Below, piece after piece: positions 3,625 to 17,912 of a stretch of DNA of 64,000 nucleotides. Every line of letters starts with the position of its first letter. The first letter of the stretch is position 1. A program made the position numbers and the translations under genes. Below the pieces are notes generated by a model. That model saw nothing but the letters and a program-made list of their open reading frames with translations. It did no database searches and had not been told where the DNA came from. Source of the DNA: Candidatus Eiseniibacteriota bacterium (lineage in GTDB: Bacteria; Eisenbacteria; RBG-16-71-46; DASYSL01); contig JBKJJJ010000215.1 of assembly GCA_046598045.1 (NCBI GenBank), positions 31,617 to 95,616 on the forward strand. Direction: 5' to 3'.

Positions 3625-4734
3625 ATGCAAGGACGCGTTGCGCTCTCCCTGACCGCGATCTTCACCCTCCTGGCCATCGGCCTGTCGTTCACTTCCGCAG
3701 CACCGCTCCTGGTTTTCGGCGTGGCGGCGCTCGCGATCCTCGGCCTGGCGGCCGTGCTCGGCGGGGCGACCGAGGAACTCGGCGCCCATCTCGGGCATCG
3801 CGTCGGCGGCATCCTCAACGCGACCGTGGGCAACGTGGGCGAGATCATCATCGCCGTGTTCGCGCTCAAGGCCGGCCTGATCGACCTGGTCAAAGCCTCG
3901 ATCACGGGCTCGATCATCGGCAACGTGCTGCTCGTGTTCGGCGCGAGCGTCACGGTGGGCGGGCTCAAGCACGGGATCCAGCGCTTCGACGCGCGCTCGG
4001 CCGGGATGAACGCCGTGCAGCTCGTGCTCGCCACGATCGGCCTGGTCGTGCCCGCGATGTTCGCCTTGAGCGTCGGCGGCGAGCACGTGGCGCAGAACTT
4101 CCTGCCGATCGAGAGCGTGACGCTCGGGGTCGCGGGGCTCCTGGTCGTGCTCTACGGACTGTCGGTCTACTATGACCTGACGCGGCCCATGGGCGCCGTC
4201 CGCTCGGGCGACGAGATGCACACCGCCGACGCCGCGGAGGCGGCCGCGCGCCGCCACTGGTCGCGTCCGCTCGGGATGCTGGTGGTCGCGGCCGCGGCGC
4301 TGGCGTGGGTTTCGGAGATCCTGGTCGGGGCGGTCGAGCCGGTCGTGCATGAACTGGGCGTCAGCCAGTTCTTCCTCGGCATCGTCGTGATCCCGATCAT
4401 CGGCAACCTCGCCGAGCACCTGGTCGCGCTCCAACTCGCGCGCAAGAACCAGATGGATTTCGCGATCGCGGTCTCGCTCGGCTCGGCGACCCAGGTGGCA
4501 TTGTTCGCGGCGCCGCTCCTGGTCTTCCTCTCGATCCCGCTCGGCCACCCGCTGACGCTCGTGTTCACGCCCCTGGAGGTGATCGCGGTCGGCATGGCCG
4601 CGCTCATCGCGGCGCTGATCGCCATCGACGGCGAATCGAACTGGCTTGAGGGCGTGCAGCTGATCGCGGTCTACCTGATCCTCGCGGTGGCGTTCTTCTT
4701 CCTGCCTTTCGGCCCCGCGCCGGTGCACCCTTAA
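3625..4734 (+). CDS. cax: Ca2+/H+ antiporter (CAX/ChaA family)
   Basis: Alpha-repeats 'LNATVGNVGE' and 'PIIGNLAEH', C-terminal 'DGESNWLEG', about 11 hydrophobic segments. Confidence 0.92.
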   Translation: MQGRVALSLTAIFTLLAIGLSFTSAAPLLVFGVAALAILGLAAVLGGATEELGAHLGHRVGGILNATVGNVGEIIIAVFALKAGLIDLVKASITGSIIGNVLLVFGASVTVGGLKHGIQRFDARSAGMNAVQLVLATIGLVVPAMFALSVGGEHVAQNFLPIESVTLGVAGLLVVLYGLSVYYDLTRPMGAVRSGDEMHTADAAEAAARRHWSRPLGMLVVAAAALAWVSEILVGAVEPVVHELGVSQFFLGIVVIPIIGNLAEHLVALQLARKNQMDFAIAVSLGSATQVALFAAPLLVFLSIPLGHPLTLVFTPLEVIAVGMAALIAALIAIDGESNWLEGVQLIAVYLILAVAFFFLPFGPAPVHP

Positions 4735-4753
4735 CCATGAGTTCGGCAAGGGT

Positions 4754-5416
4754 TTGCGGTCAGGAGCTCCACTGAATCGCGAAGCCGCGGCCCCGGGAGC
4801 GGTAAACGATTCCCACGCCGGGGGCGTCTCCCATGCCGAGGACGTGGCGCTCGCGCGCCGCGCCGCCGCCAGGGACGAGGCGGCGTGGCGGACGATCTAC
4901 GAGCGCACCCGGCAGCGCCTGTTCGCGCTGCTCGCCTACCAGACGGGCGACCGCGAGGAGGCGCTCGAGCTCCTGCAGGAGGTCTACCTGCACGCCTACC
5001 AGGGGCTCGCGCGCTATCGTGGGGACGGCCCGCTCGAGGCCTGGTTCGCGATCATGGCGATCCGCCGCGCGCGCGACTGGAAGCGCAAGCTGGTGCGGCG
5101 GCGACGGCACGAGCGGGATGATGCGGAGATCGGCCGGGCCATGGAGGCGGAGGGACCGCGCGGACCCGACCCGAGCGCGCTGCCGCTGCGGATCGTGCTC
5201 GACCGGGCGCTGGCGCAACTGCCCGAGCGGCAACGCGCCGCGTTCCTCCTGCGCGAGGTCGAGGACCTTCCATTCCGCGAGGTCGCGGAGGCGCTCGGCG
5301 TCAACGAGGCGACGGCGCGTGTCCACCACTTGAGGGCCCGGCGCGGGCTCCAGGAATTGCTGAAGGACGAGCCGCGTGCCGCGGTGTTCATCGCCGAGGA
5401 CCGGGAGGCCCCATGA
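4754..5416 (+). CDS. ECF sigma-70 family factor (start uncertain)
   Basis: 'ELLQEVYLHAY..L.RYRG...AWF' and 'LPERQRAAFLLREVEDLPFREVA'. Confidence 0.87.
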   Translation: MRSGAPLNREAAAPGAVNDSHAGGVSHAEDVALARRAAARDEAAWRTIYERTRQRLFALLAYQTGDREEALELLQEVYLHAYQGLARYRGDGPLEAWFAIMAIRRARDWKRKLVRRRRHERDDAEIGRAMEAEGPRGPDPSALPLRIVLDRALAQLPERQRAAFLLREVEDLPFREVAEALGVNEATARVHHLRARRGLQELLKDEPRAAVFIAEDREAP

Positions 5417-6618
5417 GCGACCTGTTCAAGGACGGGCGACCGCAGCTGTCGGACGACGAGGACCGTCGTCTCTGGCAGCGCGTGCGCGCGATCCCGGGCG
5501 AGGTCGAGGGCGTCGCTCCCGCGCGCGCGCCGCGCCTGCCGTGGTGGCGTGCCCTGTGGGCGATGCCCGCCGTGCGCTATGGGGCCCCCGCGCTCGCGGT
5601 GCTGCTGGTCGCCGTGGTCTGGGTCGCCGAGCGTTCCCCGGTGCCGCCGGCACGCGTGAACGCGCAGAAAGTCCTCGACCGCGCGCGGTCCCAGGAGGCC
5701 ACCCCGTCGCCCGCGCCGATGCCCACGTCGGTGACCGCGTCCGCGCCCACAGCCGCCAACGAGTTGAAGAAGGCGACCCCCGAGCTCGCGAGCAGCGCCG
5801 ACAAGGAGCGGGACGCGAAGGAGGCCCCGATGCCAACGGGCGTGGACGCGCCGGCCGTCGTGCAGAGCGAGGAGTCCCGGCGGACGTTCGCCGCCGAGCC
5901 GGTGCCCGTGCGCGAGGCGGCCAAGGCCCGCACCGAGGAGCGCGCACAAGCGCAGAAGGCCACGCCCGTCGCGCCGCCACCCGCCGTGCGCGGGGGCCGG
6001 GCGAATGAAGATCAGTTCAAGGTCGACGGGTTGCCGGTGAACCCGCCGAAGGACGCTTTGAGCGGCGGGGCGGCGAAGGCGCCGGCATCGACACCGGCCC
6101 CGGGCGCGAACGGGGGAGCGGTCCAATCCCGGTATCGAGACTCGGGGCCCGGAGCCGGTTTGGTCCTGCCTCCGACCGGTGTGACCGATCGCCTCGCGGC
6201 GGGCACGCTGCCCGGAGCTGCCGACCTCGCGCAACACCCGATCGTCCGCGACATCACGAGCGGAAGAGCCTTCAAGGCGTTTGTCGCGATCTCTGAGCCC
6301 ACACTGTGGGCGCCAGAAGGCAACGCGAGCTACAAGGTCTTCCTCTTGGGGTTCCCCGGCGGGGTTTCGGTGGAGGCTGGCTCGATTTCCGTCACCGGCG
6401 AACATCCGGTGCCCTTTGAAAACGCAACTGCCCCGGCAAGACTCGCCGTGCTGGCCTCGCTGTTCGAGCAGGCGCTCGTTCAGACGCCGCCCTCGCGCGC
6501 GCGCATCGAGGCCCTGCGCGAGGAAGTCCGGCGGATCGACGCCGCCGAGGGCGGCTATGGCCGCACGCGCCTGCTCGCGCTGCTCGCCGGCGCGCTGAAG
6601 GCGCTGCCCGCGCGTTAG
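5413..6618 (+). CDS. Putative transmembrane anti-sigma factor with an Ala/Pro-rich extracytoplasmic part
   Basis: ATGA overlap with the ECF gene; short cytoplasmic N-terminus; TM helix 'LAVLLVAVVWV'. Confidence 0.65.
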   Translation: MSDLFKDGRPQLSDDEDRRLWQRVRAIPGEVEGVAPARAPRLPWWRALWAMPAVRYGAPALAVLLVAVVWVAERSPVPPARVNAQKVLDRARSQEATPSPAPMPTSVTASAPTAANELKKATPELASSADKERDAKEAPMPTGVDAPAVVQSEESRRTFAAEPVPVREAAKARTEERAQAQKATPVAPPPAVRGGRANEDQFKVDGLPVNPPKDALSGGAAKAPASTPAPGANGGAVQSRYRDSGPGAGLVLPPTGVTDRLAAGTLPGAADLAQHPIVRDITSGRAFKAFVAISEPTLWAPEGNASYKVFLLGFPGGVSVEAGSISVTGEHPVPFENATAPARLAVLASLFEQALVQTPPSRARIEALREEVRRIDAAEGGYGRTRLLALLAGALKALPAR

Positions 6619-8378
6619 AACCGGTTGGCGGCGGGCGTGGGCCGGGTGTATACGGAGTCGTTTACGGCGCGCTCGACGATGCGCAAATCCCCGTCCACGC
6701 CGAAGCGCAGGAACTCGTCCCGCACCAGCAACTCGGGCCGGAACGCGACCACGGCCACCCGCACATCGCCCTGCTCGTACACGTCCGCGAACGAGACCGG
6801 CAACTCGAACGCCGGGATCAGGTCGGCGGGCAGGCGCACGTTCACGCCCTTGAGGCCGATCCGCCGGAGCAGGACAACCATCGAGTCCGGGTGCATCGCG
6901 ATCCCGCAGCGGCCGAAGCGGTTCTGCTCCTCGAACACGGCGCGCACCTTGGCCCACGACTTTTCGTCGAGATCGAACGCGAGACGGATCTGGTCGCGGC
7001 GCATGAGCGGGCGCCCGACGATCCTGCTGTCCCCGAGCGTGAAGTGGATGGTGGCCTGCGCCTCGTGCGTTTGTGGGCGGATGACCCCGGTGAGCGTCTG
7101 CCGGGTCGAGAAGCCCCGGCACACCACCGAGGCCAGCGCCGTTGGTTCCCACGAGGCCGCGAACGTCGCTGCGCCCCCGGCCCCGGTGATGTGGACCGGC
7201 AGCGTGACATCGAGGGCGTCCGGCGGCTTGAAGCGGACCTTCGGCTCCCCGGGCGTCTCGAGCCGGCCGACGAGGTGCCGCACGCGCACGTCCACCCGGA
7301 TCCGGCCCGCGCCGACACGCTTGCCCAGCAGCTTGACCTTGATCTCCTGGTCGATGGTCTCATGGATCTCCGGCTTGAAGTCCACGCGCGCCCCGGTGCG
7401 GTACCGGCGCGCGACCCGGTAGGCCAGCTCGGCCAGCACCGACCGCGGGGTGAGGATCACGAGGTCGCGGTCGGCGAGCAGAATCGCGCGCCAGATCGAA
7501 TCCTGCGCGGCGAACGCGCGCACGCTGTCGCCCAGCGCCTCGACGGTGGCGGCGGTGGCGCGCTCGGGGCGTTGGCCCTCCCGCAGCGAAGGAAGCTCCC
7601 AGGGCGCGCGGGGCGCGCGCGGGCCGACGCCCGTTGAGTCGGTCTCGGGCAGGAGGCTCAGGTTGACGACCAGGCGGTTCTCGAGCGCGACCACCGAGCT
7701 CAGGCGGATCGACAACGGGACGAGCGCCTCGGGCAGCGCGAGGTCGCCCTCGACCGGGGGCAAGCGCAGGCGGGATTCGATCTTGAGTGGCAGATGAATG
7801 GCCGACTGTAAATCGTTCCACTCCTGCAGTTTCTGGATGCTGAAAAAGCGGATTGCGGGGTTCGTCACCACCGCCAGCGCTCCGGTGCCCGTGCGCACCA
7901 CCTGGAGGTCCGTGATCTCGAGCCGCGGCTTGAGCTGCCCCGTGCTGTCGTCCACGCCCGCGATGCCGAGCCGGCCGCTGAGGACGAGTTCGGCGAACAG
8001 CGTCGAGTCGGAAGCGACCATGCCGCGGCCTCTCAGCGTCACCACCGCGAGTCCGTCGAGCAGGTCCACCTTCGCCGAGTCGAGCCGCGCGACATAGCGA
8101 CCACCGTCGAACGCGCGCGTGAACGGCAGGGAGGAGGCGACGATCTTCTGCAGGAAGTCGTCGCGCACGGCGATCGTGACGTCGTTCGCCGGCAGGAGCG
8201 TGCCCTGGGTGCGGCGGGAGAGGTAACGCCTGAGCGCGGCGACCTGCTCGCCGCGGCGCTCGGCTTCGACTACGGAGGCGGGGCGCGCGAGGCTCGAGCT
8301 CAGCCGCTGGAAGAGCACCAGCCCGACTGCGAGCGCGATCAGGAGCAGCAGGCCCAGCACCAGCGGGAAGCGTCGCAT
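6615..8378 (-). CDS. Membrane-anchored hypothetical protein with two similar beta-rich halves (587 aa)
   Basis: N-terminal TM/signal 'LVLGLLLLIALAVGLVLF'; protein-like composition; starts 31 nt after the gltG-like stop on the same strand. Confidence 0.75.
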   Translation of the reverse strand: MRRFPLVLGLLLLIALAVGLVLFQRLSSSLARPASVVEAERRGEQVAALRRYLSRRTQGTLLPANDVTIAVRDDFLQKIVASSLPFTRAFDGGRYVARLDSAKVDLLDGLAVVTLRGRGMVASDSTLFAELVLSGRLGIAGVDDSTGQLKPRLEITDLQVVRTGTGALAVVTNPAIRFFSIQKLQEWNDLQSAIHLPLKIESRLRLPPVEGDLALPEALVPLSIRLSSVVALENRLVVNLSLLPETDSTGVGPRAPRAPWELPSLREGQRPERATAATVEALGDSVRAFAAQDSIWRAILLADRDLVILTPRSVLAELAYRVARRYRTGARVDFKPEIHETIDQEIKVKLLGKRVGAGRIRVDVRVRHLVGRLETPGEPKVRFKPPDALDVTLPVHITGAGGAATFAASWEPTALASVVCRGFSTRQTLTGVIRPQTHEAQATIHFTLGDSRIVGRPLMRRDQIRLAFDLDEKSWAKVRAVFEEQNRFGRCGIAMHPDSMVVLLRRIGLKGVNVRLPADLIPAFELPVSFADVYEQGDVRVAVVAFRPELLVRDEFLRFGVDGDLRIVERAVNDSVYTRPTPAANRF

Positions 8379-8409: not shown

Positions 8410-9504
8410 TCAGCCCCCGGTCGGGGGCGTGAAGACGAACGGGATGTCGAACAGGAACCGGCTCTCGGAAGAGTGCGGGAAGCGCCACTCGCGGGCCTGG
8501 CCCAGCACGCAGTTGTCGAGATCGGAATCGCCCAGGGTCGAGCGCACGACCGAGGCCTCGCTCACGCTACCGTCGCCGGCCACCGTGAGGCGGATCACGA
8601 TCTGGCCGCTCGCGCCCGCGCGCTTGGTGAGCAGGCGGTTGTAGCAGAAGCGCACCGCCGCCGCGTGGCGCTGAACGACCGCCATGAGCGCCCCGGCCGT
8701 GCGGCCCTCGGCCGCCGCGTCGCCGCCGCCGGCGACCGCCGCGGGCGCCGCGATGCGCACCTGCGCGCGGCCCACGCCGCCACCGCCGCCTCCCGCCCCC
8801 GCGCCCGCCGTGCCGCGGCCGCCGAGCCCGCCCCTGTCCGCGTTGCCCAGGATCTCGTCCACGCCGCCGAGGTCGGCGCCCGAGCGCGCGTGCGCGCCCG
8901 GCGTGCCCTCGCGGCGGGAAATGCCGCTGCCGGCGGCGCCCTCCCTCAGGGCGCGGCCGCCGCGATTGCTCGCCACCACGCCCGTGAAGTCGCCGACGAT
9001 GCGGTCCACCTCGGCCAGCGTGCCCGTGGCGGCCATCGCCTGCGCGACTCCTGCCGCCATCTGCGCGCCCTTGACGCCCGCGTTGCTTCCGCCGCCGCCA
9101 CGGGGTCCGCCGGAGCCCGGCTCGTTGGTCGGCACGCCGCTCGCGTCGGGCGGCGGCGCCTGGTGCGAGATGCGGGTCTCGGGCGCCGTGGGCTTGGGCT
9201 CCTCGGTCGGATCGGCCGAGCGCGGGGCGATGCCCTCGGCCGGGACGGCGGCGCGCTCGGGCGTCGACAGCTTCGCGAGGTCCGACTGGTTGAGCAGGAG
9301 GCGCGATACGCGCTTGGGCAACTGGTCGAAGGTCATCGACTCGATCGGGCGGATCGGCGTATTGGAAACCAGCCACAGGAACAGCGCGCCCAGGGTCAGG
9401 AAGACCAGGTGGCTGACCATCGCCGGTTTGTCGAGGGTCTCGAACGGGCCGGGCCGGAAGTCGTCGAAGAGCTCGTTCTGGGCGGCGCGTGCGCGGGTCG
9501 TCAT
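8410..9504 (-). CDS. GltG/AgmX-like TonB-family energy transducer (364 aa)
   Basis: ATG 9504 overlaps the exbD-like stop; TM helix with His ('MVSHLVFL'); Gly-rich linker; TonB_C/AgmX-type C-terminus 'VRFCYNRLL...GQIVIRLTVAGDGSV...NCVL...WRFP'. Confidence 0.85.
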   Translation of the reverse strand: MTTRARAAQNELFDDFRPGPFETLDKPAMVSHLVFLTLGALFLWLVSNTPIRPIESMTFDQLPKRVSRLLLNQSDLAKLSTPERAAVPAEGIAPRSADPTEEPKPTAPETRISHQAPPPDASGVPTNEPGSGGPRGGGGSNAGVKGAQMAAGVAQAMAATGTLAEVDRIVGDFTGVVASNRGGRALREGAAGSGISRREGTPGAHARSGADLGGVDEILGNADRGGLGGRGTAGAGAGGGGGGVGRAQVRIAAPAAVAGGGDAAAEGRTAGALMAVVQRHAAAVRFCYNRLLTKRAGASGQIVIRLTVAGDGSVSEASVVRSTLGDSDLDNCVLGQAREWRFPHSSESRFLFDIPFVFTPPTGG

Positions 9505-10013
9505 TTCTGGATCACCGCCAGCGTGATGTCGTAGAAGCCGACGGTCTGGCTCGTGTACATGACCTTCTGCAGGACCTGGAAGGGGATCGTCTCGTCCGCC
9601 TGCAGGATCAGCTTGCCTTCGAACTTGCGGGCACTGCCGGCGCGCTCGGCCAACCCTTCGGTCTTCTGGCGCACCGCGGCGAGCGCCTGCTCGAGCGCCG
9701 GTACCTTGAGCTCGCCGAGCTGCACCACGTCCTCGGTCGGGCACACGGCCTCGCCGTCGACCACGACCTGGCTCTTGGTCACGACCACCACGGGCGCCTC
9801 CTTGAACGAAGCGGTCGAGGTGGACGGCGGGAGCGTCACGCCCGGGAACGGCGACACCACGGCGCCGCCCACGACCAGGCTCTTGAGCAGGAACAAAAGC
9901 AGCACCGTGAAGATGTCGATCAGCGAGGTCAGCTGGAGCCGCGCGACCGCGGCCTGCTCGCTGCCGCGGCGCTTGCGCTCGCGAATCGCCGTGCCGACGA
10001 GGTAGCCCCTCAT
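9501..10013 (-). CDS. ExbD/TolR family, AglS-like
   Basis: TM 'LTSLIDIFTVLLLFLLKS' with the conserved Asp; periplasmic 'LILQADETIPFQVLQKVMYT'. Confidence 0.9.
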   Translation of the reverse strand: MRGYLVGTAIRERKRRGSEQAAVARLQLTSLIDIFTVLLLFLLKSLVVGGAVVSPFPGVTLPPSTSTASFKEAPVVVVTKSQVVVDGEAVCPTEDVVQLGELKVPALEQALAAVRQKTEGLAERAGSARKFEGKLILQADETIPFQVLQKVMYTSQTVGFYDITLAVIQK

Positions 10014-10459
10014 TGCTGGGCCCCCAGCAGCGTGGAGTTGCCGAAGCCGGCCTCGCGCACCTGGTCCATGACCTGGACCACGTCGCGGTAGGGCACCTGC
10101 GGCGACACCACGAGGATCGCGCCGCCCGAGGTCGGGAAGCGGGCATGCACGTTGTCGAGCTGGGCGCGCAGTTGCTGGATCGGATCGGACCCGGCGGCCA
10201 TCCGATCGATCGGCGCATAGGCGCTGTCGGGCACGCCCTCGACCGCGTAGGTCGAGTCGGCCAGGCGCACCGCGAGTGCAAGCGGGCTCGCGCTCGCCGC
10301 GCCGCCCGTGCCCGGAAAGTCGAGCCCGAGCGCCGACACCGGCACGAAGACCGCCGAGTACAGGAGCGCCGGCACGAGCGCGACGAACAGGCTCATGAGC
10401 GGCAGGAGGTTCAACTCCTCCGGCTCGGCCGGTCCGCGCTTCTTCTTACGAAGAGGCAT
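10010..10459 (-). CDS. ExbD/TolR family, AglQ-like
   Basis: 'ELNLLPLMSLFVALVPALL' TM and 'VPYRDVVQVMDQVREAGF'. Confidence 0.88.
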   Translation of the reverse strand: MPLRKKKRGPAEPEELNLLPLMSLFVALVPALLYSAVFVPVSALGLDFPGTGGAASASPLALAVRLADSTYAVEGVPDSAYAPIDRMAAGSDPIQQLRAQLDNVHARFPTSGGAILVVSPQVPYRDVVQVMDQVREAGFGNSTLLGAQQ

Positions 10460-11162
10460 GGCCGCCGTTCGCCGGGGTGCTCGTGGCGGTGGTCATCGGG
10501 ATCACGTTCTTCGGCTGGTCCAGGCCCGACATGGCGTGGATCAGCTTGACCGACGTGGCCTCGACGTCGTCGGTGATCGAGGTCACCTGCGACGAGAAGA
10601 ACGAGTGGATGAACAGCGTCGGGACGGCGACGATCAGGCCGAACGCGGTGCAGTTGAGCGCCTCCGCGATGCCGGCCGCGAGGAACGCCGATCGCTGCGC
10701 CGGGTCGGCCTGGCCGACCGCGCTGAACGAGTAGATCAGCCCCGACACCGTGCCCAGCAGGCCGAGCAGCGTCGACGCATTGGCGAGCATCGCGATGTAG
10801 AGGATGCGCTTGGAGAGCGGCGGCAGCGCAACCGAGGCGGCCGAATCCGCGGTGGCGAACAGCTCGGCCTCGACCTCGAGCGCGTTCGAGCCGCGCGTCG
10901 GGCGCTCGAGGATCGCGGTCGCGACCTGCGCCAGCGGGGCCTCGGAATCATGGCAGAAGCGCGCCGCCTCGTCCTTGCGCCCGCCGCGGATCAGCGGTAC
11001 GACGCGCTCGGTCAAGCGCTTGCTCGAGATGCGGGCCTTGACCATGATCACCCACCAGCGCTCGGCCGTGATCGCCAGCGTGATCACGGCGATGCCGAAG
11101 ATGGGGTACATGAACGGGCCGCCCGCCTTGAAGAACGTGGCGAACATGGTCAACGGATTCAT
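10446..11162 (-). CDS. MotA/TolQ/ExbB proton channel, AglR-like
   Basis: 'GGPFMYPI', 'TLLGLLGTVSGLI', 'GIAEALNCTAFGLIVAVP'. Confidence 0.93.
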   Translation of the reverse strand: MNPLTMFATFFKAGGPFMYPIFGIAVITLAITAERWWVIMVKARISSKRLTERVVPLIRGGRKDEAARFCHDSEAPLAQVATAILERPTRGSNALEVEAELFATADSAASVALPPLSKRILYIAMLANASTLLGLLGTVSGLIYSFSAVGQADPAQRSAFLAAGIAEALNCTAFGLIVAVPTLFIHSFFSSQVTSITDDVEATSVKLIHAMSGLDQPKNVIPMTTATSTPANGGHASS

Positions 11163-11542
11163 CGGCTCCCTCCGGGTGTCGGTATGGCGCGCAGGGGTTC
11201 GATCCTCCGCACGCGCACGGTTACGGGCGACGACAGGGCCGCCGTGAAATCATCTCTCAGGTAGGACGGGTGCTTGGGCGCGGCCTCGAGCGCGAGCGTC
11301 GGACCCGTGTGGACGAACAGGACGCGCGGCGCCTCGGAGCGGCCCTCGATCGTCTGCGCCGCGAGCGTGAGCGGGCGGTGCGGCGCGGCGGTCGCGAGTC
11401 GCGCGGACTTCACGGCCGGCCTCGCGGCCGGCTTCGCGGTGGGCGCCGGCGGGGGGGCCGCGGACGCACCGGGGGCGAAGCGTCCCGCGCTGCACACGAT
11501 CAGCGCGAGGGCGACGAACGATCCAGGGCGCAGTCGGCTCAC
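11159..11542 (-). CDS. Small secreted GltF/CglF-like protein
   Basis: Signal peptide, Pro/Ala linker, then 'LAAQTIEGRSEAPRVLFV', resembling the GltF 'IEG..qkP.a.yi' motif; sits directly before the aglR-like gene. Confidence 0.65.
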   Translation of the reverse strand: MSRLRPGSFVALALIVCSAGRFAPGASAAPPPAPTAKPAARPAVKSARLATAAPHRPLTLAAQTIEGRSEAPRVLFVHTGPTLALEAAPKHPSYLRDDFTAALSSPVTVRVRRIEPLRAIPTPGGSR

Positions 11543-14500
11543 GGTTGCTTCTCCTCGGCCATGCGATCGGCCAGGGTCTCGTCGAAGGACGCGCCCAACG
11601 TCAGGAAGCGTTCGAAATCACGGCGCGCGGCCGCGCGATCGAGGCGATAGAAACGCCCGAAGAGCGCCCGGTTCATGAGCGCTCCCGGCTGGCGGGGATC
11701 GAGCTCGAGGGCCTTGTTCCAAGCCCGCTCGGCCTCGCCCCACGACCCCCGAAGTTGGCGCACCACTCCCAGATCATTCCAGATTTCGGCCCGCGTCGGG
11801 TACAACTTGAGGGCCGCCTCGCACCATTGCGCGGCAAGATCAACCTGCTGATCTGCAACGTATTGCGAGATCCATCGCAAGCGGTTTCGAAGGTCCTCGA
11901 GCGCACCGGCGTCGAGCGCCGTCGAATCGACCGCCCCGACGTGTGGCTCGGCCCCGGCGACCAGCCCGCCGGAACCATCCTGCCCCGGAAGGTCGGTGGC
12001 CGCAAGCCGCCATGGCAGGTGCTGCTGGAGCCGGGGCTCGAGCCGCTCCCAGATCCGGCCCCGCCAGCCGCCCTGCGGCCGGCGCGCGCGCGCCACCGAG
12101 TCCGTGTCCGCGGATGCAGGCAGGCCCTCGAGCGTCGCGATCCAGAGGTCCTCGGCGCGCGTGTAAAAGCCGCGGGCCTGGGCGCCGATCGCGGCCCTGT
12201 ACCCGGCGCTGTCGGCCGACGCCATGACCGAGGGCGGCGGTAGCGCCCCGAGGCGCGCACCCAGGTCGTCGAGCAGGAGCCCGGCGAAATACCCGCTCTC
12301 GGCCCAGTAGGGGCTCTCCACGGTGCGGGCCGCAGCCTTGAGGTTCTCGAGCGCCGGGCCGAGCGCGGCCAGCTTGCGATCGAGCGCCGGCTTGATCGGG
12401 TGCGCGATCGGGATCGCGAGGCACGAGTCGGCGAGTACGCGTCCGAGCACGAAGCGCGCGCGCACGTCGGCCTCGGCGTCGGGCGCGAAGCCGTCGGGCA
12501 GGCGCCCGCCGACGCGCCAGGGCGCGAGTGTCTGCGCCAGCTCGGCGCGGCGGCCGAGCTCGTATTGCAGCGTCGCCAGGTCGGCGAGCGCGCGCGTGCG
12601 CGCACGGCCGTCGGGAGACTGCTTGATCAGGCGCCGGTAGGTCGCCTCCGCGTCGGTGTAGCCGCCCGCCGCGCGGAATAGTCGGCCCGCCTGCTCCAGC
12701 GCCTCGACGCCGAGGGTCCCGCCCTCGGCCAGGCGGCCGCCGGCGAGGACCTGCGCTGCGCCCAGCGTGTCGCGCGCCGCGAGCGCCGCGTCGCCGCGCT
12801 TGAGCAGCGCGTCGTCGACCAGCTTGGATGCAGGGTAGCGCTCGCGCAGCGTCGCGAGGTGCTCGTCGGCCAGGCGGGGCTGGCCGCCCTGGAGCGCGGC
12901 CAGCCCGGCGCGGTAGAGCGCGACGTCGGCGCGCGCGAAGTTCGGGTAGCGGTCGGCCACGGTGCGGAACGTGCTGGCGGCCCGGGCACTGTCCGGCCCG
13001 GCCGCCTGGTCCTCGGCGGCCTTGAAGCGCGCCGAGGCCGCGAGGTCCGACAGGCGCGTCTCTTCGGCACGATCGCCCGCGGCCAGGTAGCCCGCGGCCG
13101 CCTCGGCGTAGGCCTTCTCGGCATCGAGCCAGCGGCTCTCCGCGAGCGCCACGCGCCCGAGCTCGGCCTGCGCGCGACGCGAGGCCTCGCTGGTGTCCCG
13201 GCCGGCGACGTGCTCGAACACGCGGCGGGCACGCGCGGGGTCCTCGTGCTCCTTCGCCCCGAGGGCGAGCGAGAGCCACAGCGGCGGTACGCGCGCGTCC
13301 CCGGGGGACTCGCTCTCGAGGCGGGTCACCGCGCGCTCGAGCGAGTCGCGAACGCCCGCGCTCCGGTAACCGTCGGCGGCGGCCACGCGCTCCCGGGCGA
13401 GCGCCGCGCCGAACGCGGCCTCGCGCTTGACGTCCGCCGGCGCGCCGGGGATCGCGAGCGCGCGCTCGTGCGCCCGGGCGGACTCGTCGAACCGTCCGAG
13501 GTCGAACAGCGCCTCGCCCTCGGACGAAGCGGCGAGCGCGAGCGAGTCGCTCTGCGGGTAGAGCCGGGCGAGCTCGCGGTAGAGCCCGACGGCGCGGGTG
13601 AGCGCGGGCATGTCCTTGCGCGTCCGTCCGGCTTCGTGCGCCAGGAACGCAGCCTCGAGCAGCGCGCGCGCGCCCACGTCCTGGGCCTCTGCGCCGAGGC
13701 CCACGCCCTTGCCGCCCGGCCCGAAGAAGTGGCCGAGGTCGACGCGCGTGAGCTCGCGTTCGTCCGGCCGCGAACGCGCGTCCCACGCGCCCAGGACCTT
13801 CTGCGCCAGCGCGAGGTTCTCGGGCCGCGTCGGTTCGCGCTCCATTGCGAGCCGCCACGCGCGCGCGGCGGCGTCGAACGCGCCGTCGTCGAAGTCCTGC
13901 TCGGCCATCGCGACCAGCAGCGCGTGGGCGTAGGGCGGGTTCGGGTGCCCGCTCAGGAAGCGGTCGGCCGCCGACGCGCCGCCCCCCTGGCGGAGCGCCT
14001 TCGCGAGCTGGGCGAGGCCGTCGTCGGCGATCTCGGGCGGCAGGTCGGGCAGCGCGAGCAGGCCGGCGAATGCCTCCGTGGCGGCGGCCGCGTCGCCGCG
14101 CTTGAGCGCCGCGAAGCCCTGCTTGTAGCGCGCGAGCGAGGCCAGTGGCCCGCCGCCCGCGGCGACCGCGCCGAAGTGCCCCTCGGCCTCGGCCCAGCGC
14201 TCGCCGTCGAGCGCGCGATCGCCGAGCTCGATGTGCGCCTCGCGTGCCAAGTCGGTCCCGGGCGCGGTCGCGAGCAGCTCGGCGAGGCGGCGGTCGGAGG
14301 TGGCGGGATCCCCCGCCTCGCGCGCCAGCGCCGCGAGGTTGAACAGCACTGCGTCGCGTCGCGCGAACGGCGGCGTTCCCGTGAGCAGCCGCTCGTAGCG
14401 CGCGACTGCCGGGGCGAAGTCGGGGGCGCCGCCGTGCGCGCGGGCCCGCGCGTAGGCGAGGCGGACCTCGAGGTCGGCGCGATTGAATTCGGTCGCGCCC

Positions 14501-16608
14501 ACGTACTGGCTCTGCGGGAAGCGCGCCAGGAAGTCGTCGCACGCGGAGATCGCCGGGCGCAGGTCGGCCTCGGTCGAATCGGATTCGTCGAGGGCGATCG
14601 CCGACCAGGCCCCGCGCTCGAACAGCGCGACCTCGTAGTCCGCGCGCGCGCGCTCGGCCATCTGTGCGGTGTGGGCCCGCGCGCGCGCATCGTCGTCGCG
14701 CACGGCGGCGAGGCGGGCGAGCGAATCGGCCGAAGTCACCTCGACCGCCGCGCGGTCCGCCGCGGAGGCGCGCTCTGCGAGGTCCGCCAGCGGCGCGTCC
14801 CGGCCGGCGTCCGCCGCGGCGCCGCGCGCGTCTGCCGCAAGCCGGCGCGCCTCGGCCTGGCGCCGGGCGAGGCCTGCGGCGGCGCCCGCGTTGAGCGCGA
14901 TCGAGCGCGCTCCGCGCCAGGCGGCGGCATCGCGGGCGGCGCGCGCCTCGGCGCTGTCGGCGAGCGCCTCGAGCCCGGCGGCCTCGCGCACGAGCGCGGC
15001 ACGATCGATGGCCTCGAAGGGCTCCTCCCGGCGCTCGGGCGCGGGGGCGGTCAGTGCGGCCAGGGCGCGCGCCCGCCCGGCCCGGGCGCGCGCGCGCGCG
15101 GCGGTGGCGCGGCCCTGTTGCTCGGTGGCGCGCGCGGCGGCCTCGCCCAACGCGCCGGCCCGCCGCCTCGCCCCGGACACCCAGGCCGCGCTGTCGGCGG
15201 GGGAGAGTGTCGCGTTGCGCAGGGAGTCGGACATCGCCGCCAGGTCGCGCGTCACCGCCGCGACCAGCCCGGCGCGGTCGGCGACCCGGTCGTCCGCGGC
15301 GTACGCGTCGAGCCGCGCCGAGCGCGACGCCGGGGACTCGATCTCGCGCGTCGCCTGCTCGCGGCCGCTCGCCTTGTTCTCGGCGCGCGCGGCCTCGCCC
15401 GCGCCGGTGCGCACCAGCCGGAACGGGAAGGCGGCCTGGTTCGGCGCGTCCGGCATGGGCGGCATCCAGCCCTCGCGCGCGGCCTGCGCGAGGAAGAACT
15501 CCCGCGCCAGGCGGGGGCGGTCGACGTCGAGTTCGAGCGCGCCCTCGAGCACGTCGGTGGCGTCGGTGAGCAGCGCGACGCCCACGCCCTCGCCGCGCGA
15601 GGCGGCCTCGAGATCGGCGGCGCCGTCGCCCGCGACCGCAGCCGCGATCCGGTACTCGCCCGACTGCGCGCGGCAGCGCGCCTCGAGCGCGAGCAGGCGC
15701 CCGCGCTCGCCGCGGTCACGCGTGCAGGCCTGGGCGTAGTTGAACGCCGCCGCCGCCTCGTGGGCGTGGCCGAGACGGTAATGCGCATAGCCCGTCAGGA
15801 TCGCCGCCGGGCAGGAGAGCGTGCGGCTCTTGTCGGTACCGACGCGCTCGACCCAGTGCAGCGCCGTGGCGGCGTTGCCCTGGTAGTAGGCGAGCGCCGC
15901 GCGCCTGAGCGCGGCTTCGGAGACGAGGTCGCCGTCGCCGCGCGCGGCCGCCCGCTCGACCGCGCGCTCGAGCGCCGCCTGCGCCGCGGCGGTGTCGCCC
16001 GCCGCAAGGTGCGCGTGCCCCAGCAGGAGCGACCAGAACGGCCCGGCGGCGGTGGCCTCGAGCGGCTTGCCCCAAGCCTCGGCCGCGCGCGCGCCGCGGG
16101 AGCGTGCGATGCGCTCACCCTGCGCCACCGCGGCGACGAGCCCGAGCGGCCCGCGCGTCGCCGCGGTGGCGGGATCGAGCGCGTCGGCGCATGGCGCGTC
16201 CTCGAGCGCGCACAGGTCGAGCACGGCGCGCGCCCAGGGCGTACCTGCAAACTGGCGCATCAGGAGGTCGCGCTCGCGCTCGGCGGCCTCGGGCTGGCCG
16301 GCTTGCCGCAACGCCTCGGTGCGCGCGAAGCGCAGGGCCGTGGCGGGGATCGACCCGCTCCCGGCAGCGAGCGCCAGCCCCGCGAGCCGCGCCGCGCGAT
16401 CCGGCCGGCCGGCCGTGTACTCGAAGAGCGCAGCCCTCGCCCACGCCTCCCCGGGCATCGCGGCGCGCGCAGGCGCGGCGGAGGCAGCGGCAGCAGGGCG
16501 GGCCGGGGCGGCGGGCGCCCCTGCGCATACGGGCGCGACCCACGCCCCCAAGGCCGCGCCCGCGAGGATCAAGGCGCGGTGGAACGGCGTTCGACAACGC
16601 GGCGTCAT
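11539..16608 (-). CDS. Giant secreted TPR protein (1689 aa), apparent GltC/GltD/GltE-like fusion
   Basis: ATG 16608 overlaps the upstream TGA; signal peptide; many TPR repeats; GltD-like C-terminal module 'IPIAHPIKPALDRKL...LPPP...YRAAIGAQARGFYTRAEDLW'; final TPR block. Confidence 0.8.
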   Translation of the reverse strand: MTPRCRTPFHRALILAGAALGAWVAPVCAGAPAAPARPAAAASAAPARAAMPGEAWARAALFEYTAGRPDRAARLAGLALAAGSGSIPATALRFARTEALRQAGQPEAAERERDLLMRQFAGTPWARAVLDLCALEDAPCADALDPATAATRGPLGLVAAVAQGERIARSRGARAAEAWGKPLEATAAGPFWSLLLGHAHLAAGDTAAAQAALERAVERAAARGDGDLVSEAALRRAALAYYQGNAATALHWVERVGTDKSRTLSCPAAILTGYAHYRLGHAHEAAAAFNYAQACTRDRGERGRLLALEARCRAQSGEYRIAAAVAGDGAADLEAASRGEGVGVALLTDATDVLEGALELDVDRPRLAREFFLAQAAREGWMPPMPDAPNQAAFPFRLVRTGAGEAARAENKASGREQATREIESPASRSARLDAYAADDRVADRAGLVAAVTRDLAAMSDSLRNATLSPADSAAWVSGARRRAGALGEAAARATEQQGRATAARARARAGRARALAALTAPAPERREEPFEAIDRAALVREAAGLEALADSAEARAARDAAAWRGARSIALNAGAAAGLARRQAEARRLAADARGAAADAGRDAPLADLAERASAADRAAVEVTSADSLARLAAVRDDDARARAHTAQMAERARADYEVALFERGAWSAIALDESDSTEADLRPAISACDDFLARFPQSQYVGATEFNRADLEVRLAYARARAHGGAPDFAPAVARYERLLTGTPPFARRDAVLFNLAALAREAGDPATSDRRLAELLATAPGTDLAREAHIELGDRALDGERWAEAEGHFGAVAAGGGPLASLARYKQGFAALKRGDAAAATEAFAGLLALPDLPPEIADDGLAQLAKALRQGGGASAADRFLSGHPNPPYAHALLVAMAEQDFDDGAFDAAARAWRLAMEREPTRPENLALAQKVLGAWDARSRPDERELTRVDLGHFFGPGGKGVGLGAEAQDVGARALLEAAFLAHEAGRTRKDMPALTRAVGLYRELARLYPQSDSLALAASSEGEALFDLGRFDESARAHERALAIPGAPADVKREAAFGAALARERVAAADGYRSAGVRDSLERAVTRLESESPGDARVPPLWLSLALGAKEHEDPARARRVFEHVAGRDTSEASRRAQAELGRVALAESRWLDAEKAYAEAAAGYLAAGDRAEETRLSDLAASARFKAAEDQAAGPDSARAASTFRTVADRYPNFARADVALYRAGLAALQGGQPRLADEHLATLRERYPASKLVDDALLKRGDAALAARDTLGAAQVLAGGRLAEGGTLGVEALEQAGRLFRAAGGYTDAEATYRRLIKQSPDGRARTRALADLATLQYELGRRAELAQTLAPWRVGGRLPDGFAPDAEADVRARFVLGRVLADSCLAIPIAHPIKPALDRKLAALGPALENLKAAARTVESPYWAESGYFAGLLLDDLGARLGALPPPSVMASADSAGYRAAIGAQARGFYTRAEDLWIATLEGLPASADTDSVARARRPQGGWRGRIWERLEPRLQQHLPWRLAATDLPGQDGSGGLVAGAEPHVGAVDSTALDAGALEDLRNRLRWISQYVADQQVDLAAQWCEAALKLYPTRAEIWNDLGVVRQLRGSWGEAERAWNKALELDPRQPGALMNRALFGRFYRLDRAAARRDFERFLTLGASFDETLADRMAEEKQP

Positions 16609-17912
16609 GGAGCGGTGGCCGTCACGAAATCGAGCGCCGGCGCCGCGCCGGCGCGTTCGCCGCCGCTGAGCTTGAGGCGCAACAGCGTCAATTGGCGGAG
16701 CGCGAGCGCGCCGCGCCAGGTCACGCTCTGGGTCTTGTGGTCCACGCCCTCGATGTCGACCCTGATCTCGCGCGTCCCGGGGCGCACCGTGCGGCGCGCG
16801 ACCTCGGCCCACGCGCCCGCGTCGAGCGCGCGCCATTCGGCGTCGCCGTAGGCGGCGCGCGCGATCTCCGCGCCGTCGACCGACAGCTTGATCAGCGCGG
16901 GGCGCGCCCGCGCATCGAGCGCGAGGTAGAGTGCGAGCTCGGTCGGGCGCTCGGACGCGAGATCGCGACGCGCAGCCTCGATCCGCTGGGCGCTGCGCGC
17001 GAGCAGGCTGTCGGATTGCGCGGTGCCGGCGCGCGCGCTGGCGAGTGCGGCGGCCTGCGCCTCGACGTCGTTCCCGGCGACGAGCACGTCCCCGTGGCCG
17101 AGCGTGTCGAGGGCGGCGTCCTGGGCGGCGAGGCGCTCGAGCGCCGCGGCCTCGCGCGCCACCAACCAGAGCGGGCGCTCGTCGCCCGGCTTGCCCCATG
17201 TGCCCGTGCCGCCGCCCGAGCGCGCGAGCGCGGCCGCGCCGTGCGCGGACAGCCAGGGCGAGAGCTTAGCGCGTCCGCCCGCGAGTTCGCCGACCGTCTC
17301 CGGCACCTCGCCTTCGCGTTCGAGGATGAGCGTGCCACGCAGCGCGTCGCCGATCCACTCGCGGCCCACGCTCGACCCGGTGCCGAATCCGAACAGCCAG
17401 GTGGTACGCCGGGGGCCGTCGGGCAGCGACAGGCCGTTCGACAGCATCGCGATGCGCAGCGGGCCGGTCGCCCGGGCGCGCACGAACTCCGGGTCCTTGC
17501 CGGCACGCTGGATCGCGTTGAACCCGTCCAACCAGCCATCCTCGAGCGCCGGCGGCGAGAACGGAAACGCGAGCTCGAACCACATCGCCGCACCGCCACG
17601 CCGCACCGTCCAGCCGCGCGTCCGCCGGCCCTGCGGCGACCAGAACAGGTAGGTCCACGACTCGGCCGTCCCGTCCGCCCACAGCGAAGCGGAGGCCTCG
17701 AGGTACACGAGCGTGGCGTCGGGTTGCCAGCCGCGGGCGAGCGCGCGCGCGGTCTCGAGCCCATCGCGCGCCTTGAGCCCGATGCCCTCGGGTTTGGGCA
17801 CGAGCGAGAGGCTCGCCGCGCCGGCATGCGGCGCCACGGCGAGCGCGCCGAGAAGAGCCAGCACGGGGAGCAACGCGCGGCGCTGGCGTGCGAAGGGCAA
17901 GTGGGGCGACAT
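16605..17912 (-). CDS. Secreted two-domain protein, first gene of the Agl/Glt-like operon (435 aa)
   Basis: C-terminal part of ORF 16605..20483; signal peptide 'LLPVLALLGALAVAPHAGA'; short coiled coil, then 'IKLSVDGAEIARAAYGDAEWRALDAG...PGTREI'. Confidence 0.72.
   Translation of the reverse strand: MSPHLPFARQRRALLPVLALLGALAVAPHAGAASLSLVPKPEGIGLKARDGLETARALARGWQPDATLVYLEASASLWADGTAESWTYLFWSPQGRRTRGWTVRRGGAAMWFELAFPFSPPALEDGWLDGFNAIQRAGKDPEFVRARATGPLRIAMLSNGLSLPDGPRRTTWLFGFGTGSSVGREWIGDALRGTLILEREGEVPETVGELAGGRAKLSPWLSAHGAAALARSGGGTGTWGKPGDERPLWLVAREAAALERLAAQDAALDTLGHGDVLVAGNDVEAQAAALASARAGTAQSDSLLARSAQRIEAARRDLASERPTELALYLALDARARPALIKLSVDGAEIARAAYGDAEWRALDAGAWAEVARRTVRPGTREIRVDIEGVDHKTQSVTWRGALALRQLTLLRLKLSGGERAGAAPALDFVTATAP

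Follow-up and report, generated by a model that had tools for sequence, protein, structure and literature searches.

Which machine is encoded by an operon that joins a proton channel to a giant periplasmic repeat protein? The question is raised by a stretch of 64,000 nucleotides, hereafter the window, from a genome of Candidatus Eiseniibacteriota (GenBank assembly GCA_046598045.1, contig JBKJJJ010000215.1, positions 31,617 to 95,616), in which seven minus-strand genes, g1 to g7, occupy positions 8410-17912. A preliminary description, made from the sequence alone, took them for a minimal trans-envelope motor resembling the Agl/Glt gliding machinery of myxobacteria. Four observations support this claim: the clade of the channel g4, the likeness of g2 to GltD, the likeness of g3 to the protein in the GltF slot, and the tail of g7. 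We consider it likely that the operon encodes an envelope-spanning machine of the Agl/Glt "core complex" type, a third system beside Tol and Ton. The locus adds a member to a known kind, and the motor type is ancestral to the myxobacterial gliding machinery.

In the sections of Luciano et al. 2011 (PMC3169522) used here and below, the core complex, or Group B, comprises gltC, gltD, gltE and gltG, the genes aglR, aglQ and aglS, and one additional gene, all in a single operon. According to the same sections, the additional gene has no myxobacterial homologues, and GltF is set outside the core, being restricted to Myxococcales and Bdellovibrionales. The hosts are several Gammaproteobacteria, one betaproteobacterium, Geobacter and Fibrobacter succinogenes; binding of AglR to GltG was shown by two-hybrid; the core genes are judged insufficient for motility, their carriers are mostly non-gliders, and their function is given as unknown. 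The preliminary description had matched the gene order of the window to a core of GltD/E/F-AglR/Q/S-GltG: the likeness to D, F, G and the motor holds, but the published core has GltC and not GltF. The claim that the operon lies outside its usual myxobacterial context is right in that the host is not a myxobacterium, but the surprise was overstated, the occurrence in Fibrobacter having been printed in 2011 (PMC3169522).

The operon

The window is placed on contig C32 of a genome of 3.2 Mb in 216 contigs, with an estimated completeness of 91.6%. The genes g1 to g7 are co-directional and, as computed from their coordinates, all six junctions overlap, by 4, 4, 4, 14, 4 and 4 nucleotides, which confirms the layout given in the preliminary description. 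An eighth gene, g8, missing from its list, begins 31 nucleotides past the end of g7 on the same strand, and is probably part of the operon. In order of transcription, the genes are:

g1: 16605-17912, minus strand, 435 amino acids; secreted accessory protein with a signal peptide
g2: 11539-16608, minus strand, 1689 amino acids; putative periplasmic scaffold made of tetratricopeptide repeats (TPR)
g3: 11159-11542, minus strand, 127 amino acids; secreted "IEG" protein with a signal peptide and a TIEG...P motif
g4: 10446-11162, minus strand, 238 amino acids; putative AglR-type proton channel of the MotA/TolQ/ExbB family (PF01618, 78.6 bits)
g5: 10010-10459, minus strand, 149 amino acids; first ExbD/TolR-family subunit, in the AglQ position (PF02472, 43.8 bits)
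g6: 9501-10013, minus strand, 170 amino acids; second ExbD/TolR-family subunit, in the AglS position (PF02472, 52.9 bits)
g7: 8410-9504, minus strand, 364 amino acids; putative GltG-type transducer (NF033768, 77.6 bits; TonB_C, 24.2 bits)
g8: 6615-8378, minus strand, 587 amino acids; N-terminal membrane anchor, probable eighth gene of the operon

The start of g2 requires some care. The mechanical, stop-to-stop open reading frame (ORF), 11539-17199 on the minus strand, extends about 197 codons upstream of the true start, as an Arg-rich read-through over the end of g1; the true start is the ATG at 16608, which overlaps g1 in an ATGA and is followed by a signal peptide. Such a read-through is an artefact typical of high-G+C DNA (the G+C content of the window is 70-79%), and automatic callers could mis-start g2.

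The channel and its two partners

Is g4 simply an ExbB or a TolQ? Among solved structures, those nearest to it are of ExbB (43 bits) and TolQ (37 bits). Among the equivalogs of NCBIfam, its best name is TolQ, at 58.7 bits for a cut-off of 221, and ExbB scores 46.6 for a cut-off of 206.2. All the Ton/Tol equivalogs stay far below their cut-offs on the proteins of the operon: ExbD reaches 18.9 (cut-off 153), TolR 16.5 (127) and YbgF 73.7 (90.1).

Trees were computed with TolQ, ExbB and MotA of E. coli, the two other g4 paralogues of the genome, and all PF01618 paralogues of Plesiocystis pacifica and of three Myxococcota genomes with a gltD-E-F-G-like cluster, the Plesiocystis and Myxococcota paralogues standing in for AglR of M. 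xanthus. The IQ-TREE reconstruction (59 rows, LG+C20 with posterior mean site frequencies) has a branch, supported at 97/99, that separates 36 Agl-like rows, g4 among them, from the rest. A different clade (98/86) unites TolQ and ExbB of E. coli with the TolQ-like copy of the genome, whose ExbB-like copy falls outside the Agl-like clade. FastTree, applied to 119 rows, agrees, with a support of 99 for the Agl-like clade. The companions of g4 are sequences of Fibrobacterota, Cellvibrionaceae, Bdellovibrionota, and Myxococcota paralogues. The Myxococcota paralogues come in two sets: in the first, g4 gives 86-124 bits and E. coli TolQ/ExbB only 30-49, and each member is followed by a g5-like, then a g6-like gene; the members of the second have their best scores with TolQ/ExbB. 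On this evidence g4 is classed as an AglR-clade channel, distinct from TolQ and ExbB, with the proxies in the place of M. xanthus AglR. The ExbB-like protein of the preliminary description does not branch with canonical ExbB/TolQ, nor, as will be seen, are its TPR and IEG proteins devoid of similarity to Glt proteins.

The two ExbD/TolR-family subunits differ at the column of TolR Asp23. The window has Ser in g5, and the 69 homologues in first position have Asn (40), Asp (24) or Ser (5); every one of the 79 homologues in second position, like g6, has Asp. In the first subunit, Asn dominates in Fibrobacterota, Bacteroidota, KSB1, Latescibacterota and Krumholzibacteriota, and Asp in Gemmatimonadota and Gammaproteobacteria. 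That the proton-carrying Asp is usually lost from the first subunit, and always kept by the second, suggests an asymmetric stator heterodimer. In the parts of a review cited here (PMC9389320), both AglQ and AglS retain the Asp, and whether they form hetero- or homodimers is described as not known.

An unusual tandem expansion of the motor was observed in a Myxococcota genome (G131:C27:164655-168363; loci L118, L120, L123 and L126): four to five Agl-like channel genes lie within 4 kb, with ExbD-like genes between them.

Distribution and gene order

A profile search of species-representative genomes gave 590 relatives of g4, and the best 80 of them define the loci on which all counts out of 80 loci are based. 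At about 80% identity, the relatives belong to three metagenome-assembled genomes (MAGs) of Eisenbacteria/Eiseniibacteriota; at about 50%, to Latescibacterota, Krumholzibacteriota and further Eisenbacteria. Between about 35 and 46% are found Gemmatimonadota, KSB1, Fibrobacterota, Bacteroidota (Cytophagia MAGs), Calditrichota, Gammaproteobacteria (Steroidobacteraceae, Cellvibrionaceae and Zhongshania marina), Bdellovibrionota and Plesiocystis pacifica SIR-1. Teredinibacter and Saccharophagus are members of the Cellvibrionaceae. The preliminary description had proposed a lineage related to the Fibrobacterota-Chlorobiota-Bacteroidota (FCB) group, and rightly so: by the nearest relatives of g4, the host is Eisenbacteria-like. 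Within the host phylum, 29 of 101 sampled genomes, one of the 29 being unpublished, have a g4-like gene at E ≤ 1e-35 (25 of the 90 high-quality ones).

The gene order is shared by Eisenbacteria, Latescibacterota, Krumholzibacteriota, Gemmatimonadota, KSB1, Calditrichota, Bacteroidota, Fibrobacterota, Gammaproteobacteria and Plesiocystis. ExbD-like ORFs stand behind the channel gene in 80/80 loci (164 ORFs in all). A match to g7 is found in 59/80, almost always directly downstream, several of the other loci breaking off ahead of that position. Upstream, phmmer with g2 detects a large TPR gene in 45/80 loci, and BLAST clustering in 62/80.

Three variations on this arrangement were noted. Some Eisenbacteria genomes have two diverged copies of the module, at about 80% and 50% identity to g4: examples are the loci L001 and L016, from the same Eiseniibacteriota MAG, and genome G266; the genome of the window shows one copy. 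Operons of the Latescibacterota/Krumholzibacteriota type (L005:1572-2582, plus strand, and neighbours) have three extra genes before the g1-like genes, one of which encodes an SH3 and outer-membrane beta-barrel protein, a candidate outer-membrane partner. In Fibrobacter (L066:12947-16122, plus strand, also L053 and L055), Wza-like (Poly_export/SLBB) and Wzc-like (Wzz/GNVR/P-loop) genes for polysaccharide export come right after the module.

The transducer

The protein g7 has a short cytoplasmic N-terminus of about 28 residues before a single transmembrane helix, then a Gly/Ala/Pro-rich linker and an AgmX/PglI C-terminal domain. The latter is recognized by NF033768 well above the cut-off of 40 bits, and the TonB_C score is slightly below its cut-off of 24.6. 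Only g7, of all proteins of the genome, exceeds the NF033768 cut-off: the two other TonB_C-like matches of the genome (28.6 and 24.4 bits) do not reach the AgmX/PglI tail. All seven of the syntenic downstream TonB-like proteins that were sampled, from seven lineages, pass the same cut-off (41.9-87.3 bits). The GltG equivalog NF033760 gives 58.2 bits (cut-off 650) and the GltJ equivalog 42.1 (cut-off 450), both on the C-terminal part only. As the preliminary description had it, no FHA domain is found on g7 at E ≤ 0.01, whereas the Myxococcota GltG-like reference does show FHA-type matches. Judged by these profiles, g7 is a GltG-type membrane transducer with a TonB-like (AgmX/PglI) C-terminus. 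A sequence search of the PDB with g7 gave nothing meaningful, and an argument based on a TonB-like SHLS was dropped, the histidine of the transmembrane helix not being conserved.

The scaffold

In Pfam and NCBIfam, g2 matches TPR families and a YbgF-type model. Its residues 742-1071 are collinear with residues 175-516 of a Myxococcota GltD-like protein, over about 350 amino acids (BLASTP E 4e-11). When the families are compared as profiles, the best match of g2 is to GltD-like proteins (hhalign 99.9%, E 8e-31, 820 columns), and it aligns about 685-1541 of g2 with positions 105-1144 of 1170, nearly the full length of the GltD-like profile. Other TPR sets give at most about 340 columns, with E from 1e-15 to 1e-22. 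The body of g2, from about 685 to 1541, is accordingly described as GltD-like, this being the best and longest match, yet not an exclusive one; the similarity to GltD announced in the preliminary description is borne out to that extent.

That description had also counted a GltE counterpart, for which a likeness exists in the last 90-120 residues of g2 and nowhere else: this stretch (about 1559-1688) resembles GltE-like proteins (BLASTP E 3e-9; hhalign 90.6%, 88 columns), and in related operons there is a separate TPR gene of about 313 amino acids whose end maps to it. The short GltE-like TPR end proper is set at about 1586-1688. The GltE equivalog NF033758 gives no match even at E ≤ 10. The first 685 or so amino acids of g2 are a lineage-specific extension, to which the profile comparisons assigned no counterpart.

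The small secreted protein

The members of the g3 family have about 85-180 amino acids: behind a signal peptide comes a linker of low complexity, and then a C-terminal core. The version of the core shared by many members is I-E-[IV]-x-G-x(4)-P-Q-x-[VIL]-F..., and that of the window is TIEGRSEAPRVLFV; across 24 sequences two positions never vary, one Gly and one Pro. In a library of 1.84 billion proteins, 594 representative clusters are found at E ≤ 1e-3. The profile of the family matches in 60/80 loci, and in 58/80 the match lies directly upstream of the AglR-like gene.

Is this the protein called GltF in myxobacteria? The best full-length GltG-like loci of Myxococcota serve as Glt proxies, and in eight of them, Plesiocystis included, the GltF slot, between the gltE-like and gltG-like genes, holds a signal-peptide protein of 86-98 amino acids; GltF of M. 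xanthus has 89 amino acids, with a signal peptide (PMC3169522, Table 1). An hhalign comparison of the IEG family (26 sequences) with the GltF slot (8 sequences) gives 82.9% and E 9.2e-6 over 52 columns, the whole mature domain, against 0.3% for the reversed control and at most 1.2% for 30 column shuffles. With a hidden Markov model (HMM) of the GltF slot, 51 of the 149 representatives of the IEG family are matched at E ≤ 1e-3, eight of them at E ≤ 1e-5, as against none of 1490 shuffled and none of 149 reversed sequences. These comparisons, made with the slot proteins in place of M. xanthus GltF, support g3 as a remote homologue of the GltF-slot protein, and with it the identification of IEG and GltF made in the preliminary description, in the sense of remote homology. 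We infer, tentatively, that the additional gene of the published core complex is the gene of the IEG protein.

A complex prediction for the C-terminal domain of g7 with the core of g3 scored 0.41 (runs 0.40, 0.43 and 0.41), the best of three controls scoring 0.00. Of 80 solved complexes, 58 reach the mark used for such predictions, as do 2 of 110 mismatched pairs; those reaching it at 0.60 or under comprise 7 of the 80 solved complexes and both mismatched pairs. At least 85% of the contacts recur from run to run, and the pLDDT (predicted local distance difference test) of the partner is about 49, at any rate no less than 48. The predicted contact hints at a pairing of g3 and g7, and we treat it as a lead, not as evidence of binding.

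The lineage-specific proteins

Pfam matches no family on g1, g3 or g8, and NCBIfam none on g1 or g8; g1 has no TPR match either. For g1, Pfam, NCBIfam, the Atlas search and Foldseek identified no Glt counterpart, the Atlas search giving no usable match at all. It has 14 full-length homologues, none with a name, and is confined to the group of Eisenbacteria, Latescibacterota, Krumholzibacteriota and Gemmatimonadota, in which two genes often take the place of one: in L005, L012 and L071, adjacent ORFs encode the N and the C half separately. Its predicted fold (AlphaFold2, pLDDT 79.1) consists of an N-terminal alpha/beta domain, a long helix and a C-terminal beta-sandwich, and the only Foldseek match in the PDB at E ≤ 1e-3 is 4exr, a putative, uncharacterised lipoprotein, a match from which no function can be drawn.

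A g8 gene after g7 was seen, among the 80 loci, only in the closest Eisenbacteria locus, L001. For g8, the Atlas has a hypothetical cluster of Eiseniibacteriota (0.95) and a weak lead to DUF4403. The sequence of g8 suggests a membrane-anchored periplasmic protein, specific to the lineage.

Comparison with the published complexes

The window has much in common with the core complex: all parts lie in one operon, the channel belongs to the AglR clade, there are two ExbD/TolR genes, the transducer is of the GltG type with AgmX/PglI at its end, the TPR scaffold is GltD-like, and a small secreted protein is added. The closest relatives of g4 (Fibrobacter, Cellvibrionaceae-type Gammaproteobacteria, Bdellovibrionota and Myxococcota) are also spread much as the cited sections of PMC3169522 describe. 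The window differs in that it has no separate GltC-like or GltE-like gene, the GltE-like end being fused to g2, and in the 685-residue N-terminal extension of g2, the lineage-specific g1 and g8, and the Ser-bearing first ExbD.

With the Agl-Glt/Nfs machinery of M. xanthus, the motor, the transducer tail, the GltD-like scaffold and the GltF-like small protein are homologous, by way of the proxies. Removing the three motor genes from the order of the window leaves D-(E)-F-G, the order of the G1 cluster (PMC3169522, Table 1). The motor and scaffold genes, together in the window, are dispersed in M. xanthus; the transducer of the window has no FHA domain, and its proteins stay below the GltG, GltJ and GltE equivalogs.

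A third comparison is offered by Fibrobacter. The loci L053, L055 and L066, all members of the g4 clade, read TPR, TPR, small gene, ExbB, ExbD, ExbD, TonB, and in F. succinogenes S85 the genes FSU_2396-FSU_2403 encode OmpA, two TPR proteins, ExbB, two ExbD and TonB. From gene order and annotation, FSU_2397-FSU_2403 would be the same cluster as the Fibrobacter loci. In the parts of Raut et al. (PMC6851124) cited here, the proteins of the S85 cluster reach higher levels on cellulose, a multiprotein complex of vesicles contains the TPR and OmpA members along with cellulases, and the cluster is interpreted as a Ton system. The Fibrobacter version differs by its two large TPR genes and by the Wza/Wzc-like export genes behind it; the window has neither.

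A proposed mechanism and the points against it

The mechanism proposed here starts from gene content, family placements and conserved gene order, all of which are observed. What homology to ExbBD, TolQR and AglRQS would add is a 5:2 architecture, a coupling of energy to work, and contacts among the parts. The channel g4 would form a pentamer around a g5/g6 dimer in which g6 alone keeps the proton-carrying membrane Asp, and proton flow would turn or stroke this 5:2-type stator. The work would be transferred to g7, anchored in the inner membrane, whose flexible linker would cross the periplasm to the AgmX/PglI (TonB_C-like) domain; g7 would then act on a periplasmic assembly composed of the GltD/E-like scaffold g2, the GltF-like g3, and the lineage-specific g1 and g8. 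Such a machine more likely energises some task of the outer envelope or of surface assembly than gliding.

Several points weigh against an Agl/Glt-type machine. The Agl/Glt labels rest on proxy Myxococcota genomes and Plesiocystis pacifica, not on M. xanthus proteins, and the proxies themselves are below the equivalog cut-offs: 489 for the GltG-like protein (cut-off 650) and 130 for the GltE-like one (cut-off 225). In the Myxococcota genomes, 0/81 and 0/61 were above the cut-off for the GltG equivalog NF033760, and 0/201 were retained for the GltE equivalog NF033758 at E ≤ 1e-65, with only 8 candidates scored per genome, a depth at which this last count carries no information. The tree labels "Agl-like" and "canonical" were set in part by similarity to g4 itself. 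TPR profiles cross-match freely, with E from 1e-8 to 1e-22 between unrelated TPR sets, so what speaks for assigning g2 to GltD is how long the match is and how high it ranks, and not that it is exclusive. A GltC-like TPR protein was not found, no GltC reference having been used: the operon has no separate TPR gene, and g1 is not a TPR protein. The subunit g5 is without the Asp that AglQ and AglS both reportedly have in the review cited above (PMC9389320). Finally, the operon encodes no outer-membrane partner, and the upstream SH3/beta-barrel gene of related operons was not found, with that query, in the host genome, which is 91.6% complete.

Tol, Ton or gliding

The closest competitor is a second Tol-Pal-like system, serving the tethering or constriction of the outer membrane, in which g2 would be an oversized CpoB/YbgF. 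It can invoke the YbgF/CpoB TPR model, which matches both g2 (73.7 bits) and the Myxococcota GltD-like protein (95.1 bits), the name TolQ that comes first for g4 in NCBIfam, and a Tol-like make-up: a motor, a transducer spanning the periplasm, periplasmic partners, and no receptor. But the Tol equivalogs are under their cut-offs (58.7 versus 221, and 73.7 versus 90.1), g4 lies outside the TolQ clade, and no TolB adjoins the operon, Pal not having been searched for. The genome has a Tol cluster of its own on contig C87, with a TolQ-like gene next to a full-length TolB-like gene (299 bits); this is the single strong TolB-like match of the genome, in line with the remark of the preliminary description that no TolB is in the window. 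A second Tol-Pal-like system overlaps in mechanism with the machine proposed here, and differs mainly in the task served; we hold it to be unlikely.

Still less probable, in our view, is an ordinary ExbB-ExbD-TonB system that energises TonB-dependent outer-membrane receptors, the TPR protein being an accessory. The domain families are indeed those of Ton, the nearest structures of g4 are ExbB and TolQ, the ten receptor barrels of the genome need energising, and the equivalent Fibrobacter cluster was taken for a Ton system in the cited parts of Raut et al. (PMC6851124). Against it, g4 stands outside the E. coli ExbB/TolQ clade, with an ExbB equivalog score of 46.6 versus 206; the AgmX/PglI tail of g7 is not matched by the other TonB_C-like proteins of the genome; the scaffold and IEG genes are co-conserved across phyla; and a separate Ton-type cluster, with ExbB, two ExbD and a TonB_C match, sits on contig C76. 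All ten receptor barrels lie elsewhere than on the contig of the window (0/10), which agrees with the absence of a TonB-dependent receptor from the window, as noted in the preliminary description.

The Agl/Glt-type machine shares its protein families with ExbB-ExbD-TonB and TolQ-TolR-TolA, and presumably the 5:2 proton-driven stator with a periplasm-spanning transducer. It is set apart from them by its clade, by two different ExbD subunits, by the AgmX/PglI tail, and by a dedicated TPR scaffold and IEG protein, with no receptor or TolB alongside. As far as sequence can tell, the module of the window is a third system, paralogous to the genome's Tol and Ton.

A working gliding or Nfs-like surface-transport machine, in a bacterium that glides, is highly improbable: the motor, transducer, scaffold and GltF-like parts are homologous to the myxobacterial machinery, but g7 is without FHA and reaches only 58 (GltG) and 42 bits (GltJ) versus 650 and 450, at its C-terminus, the core genes are described as insufficient for motility and their carriers as mostly non-gliders in the cited sections of PMC3169522, and no outer-membrane module was seen, GltA, B, H and K not having been searched for. 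Within the window, none of GltH, GltI and GltJ was seen, GltA, B and K being outside the search, and candidate GltA/B-like neighbours in the Myxococcota locus L092 matched 0 Pfam families. Gliding is most likely not driven by this operon, because the outer-membrane and cytoplasmic modules specific to Myxococcales were not seen. In the limited literature searched, no paper was found that links Eisenbacteria to gliding, or AglR/AglQ to a Gemmatimonad, nor one on the Agl-Glt homologs of unknown function in Gammaproteobacteria.

Implications

It is tempting to join these results into a broader conjecture, which we regard as doubtful when taken as a whole. The IEG protein would be the ancestral GltF of an ancient core, a periplasmic ligand that the AgmX/PglI domain of the transducer holds by strand pairing. 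With Ton and Tol, the module would make up a third class of ancient motor, common throughout Gemmatimonadota and the FCB-related phyla, and would pull on a TPR scaffold by which surface complexes are organised, the cellulose-induced TPR/OmpA complex of Fibrobacter being an example. The ExbD pair would be an obligatory heterodimer, of which the second member alone conducts protons. If this conjecture were true, GltF would be an ancient part of the core and not a late myxobacterial addition.

Apart from this conjecture, the comparisons define the question of function more sharply. The module is far commoner in FCB-related phyla and Gemmatimonadota than the single Fibrobacter case of the original paper, as far as its cited sections go (PMC3169522). 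A family of small secreted proteins, counting 594 representative clusters, is part of the module and seems to be homologous to GltF. In Fibrobacter, the module seems to correspond to the TPR/ExbBD/TonB cluster, induced by cellulose, of the proteomics reported in the cited parts of PMC6851124. The role of the core complex in non-gliders has been open since 2011, and the locus of the window, whose host is an uncultured MAG, gives no answer; cultivable carriers such as Zhongshania, Gemmatimonas and Fibrobacter would open the module to genetics.

Neighbouring genes

Among the ten flanking ORFs, a divergent penicillin amidase lies upstream of the operon, and the remainder are housekeeping genes and a sigma factor of the extracytoplasmic function (ECF) type. 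The latter (Sigma70_r2 and r4_2; 4679-5416, plus strand) stands just past g8, on the opposite strand, and the ORF that comes next after it is at 5413-6618 on the plus strand.

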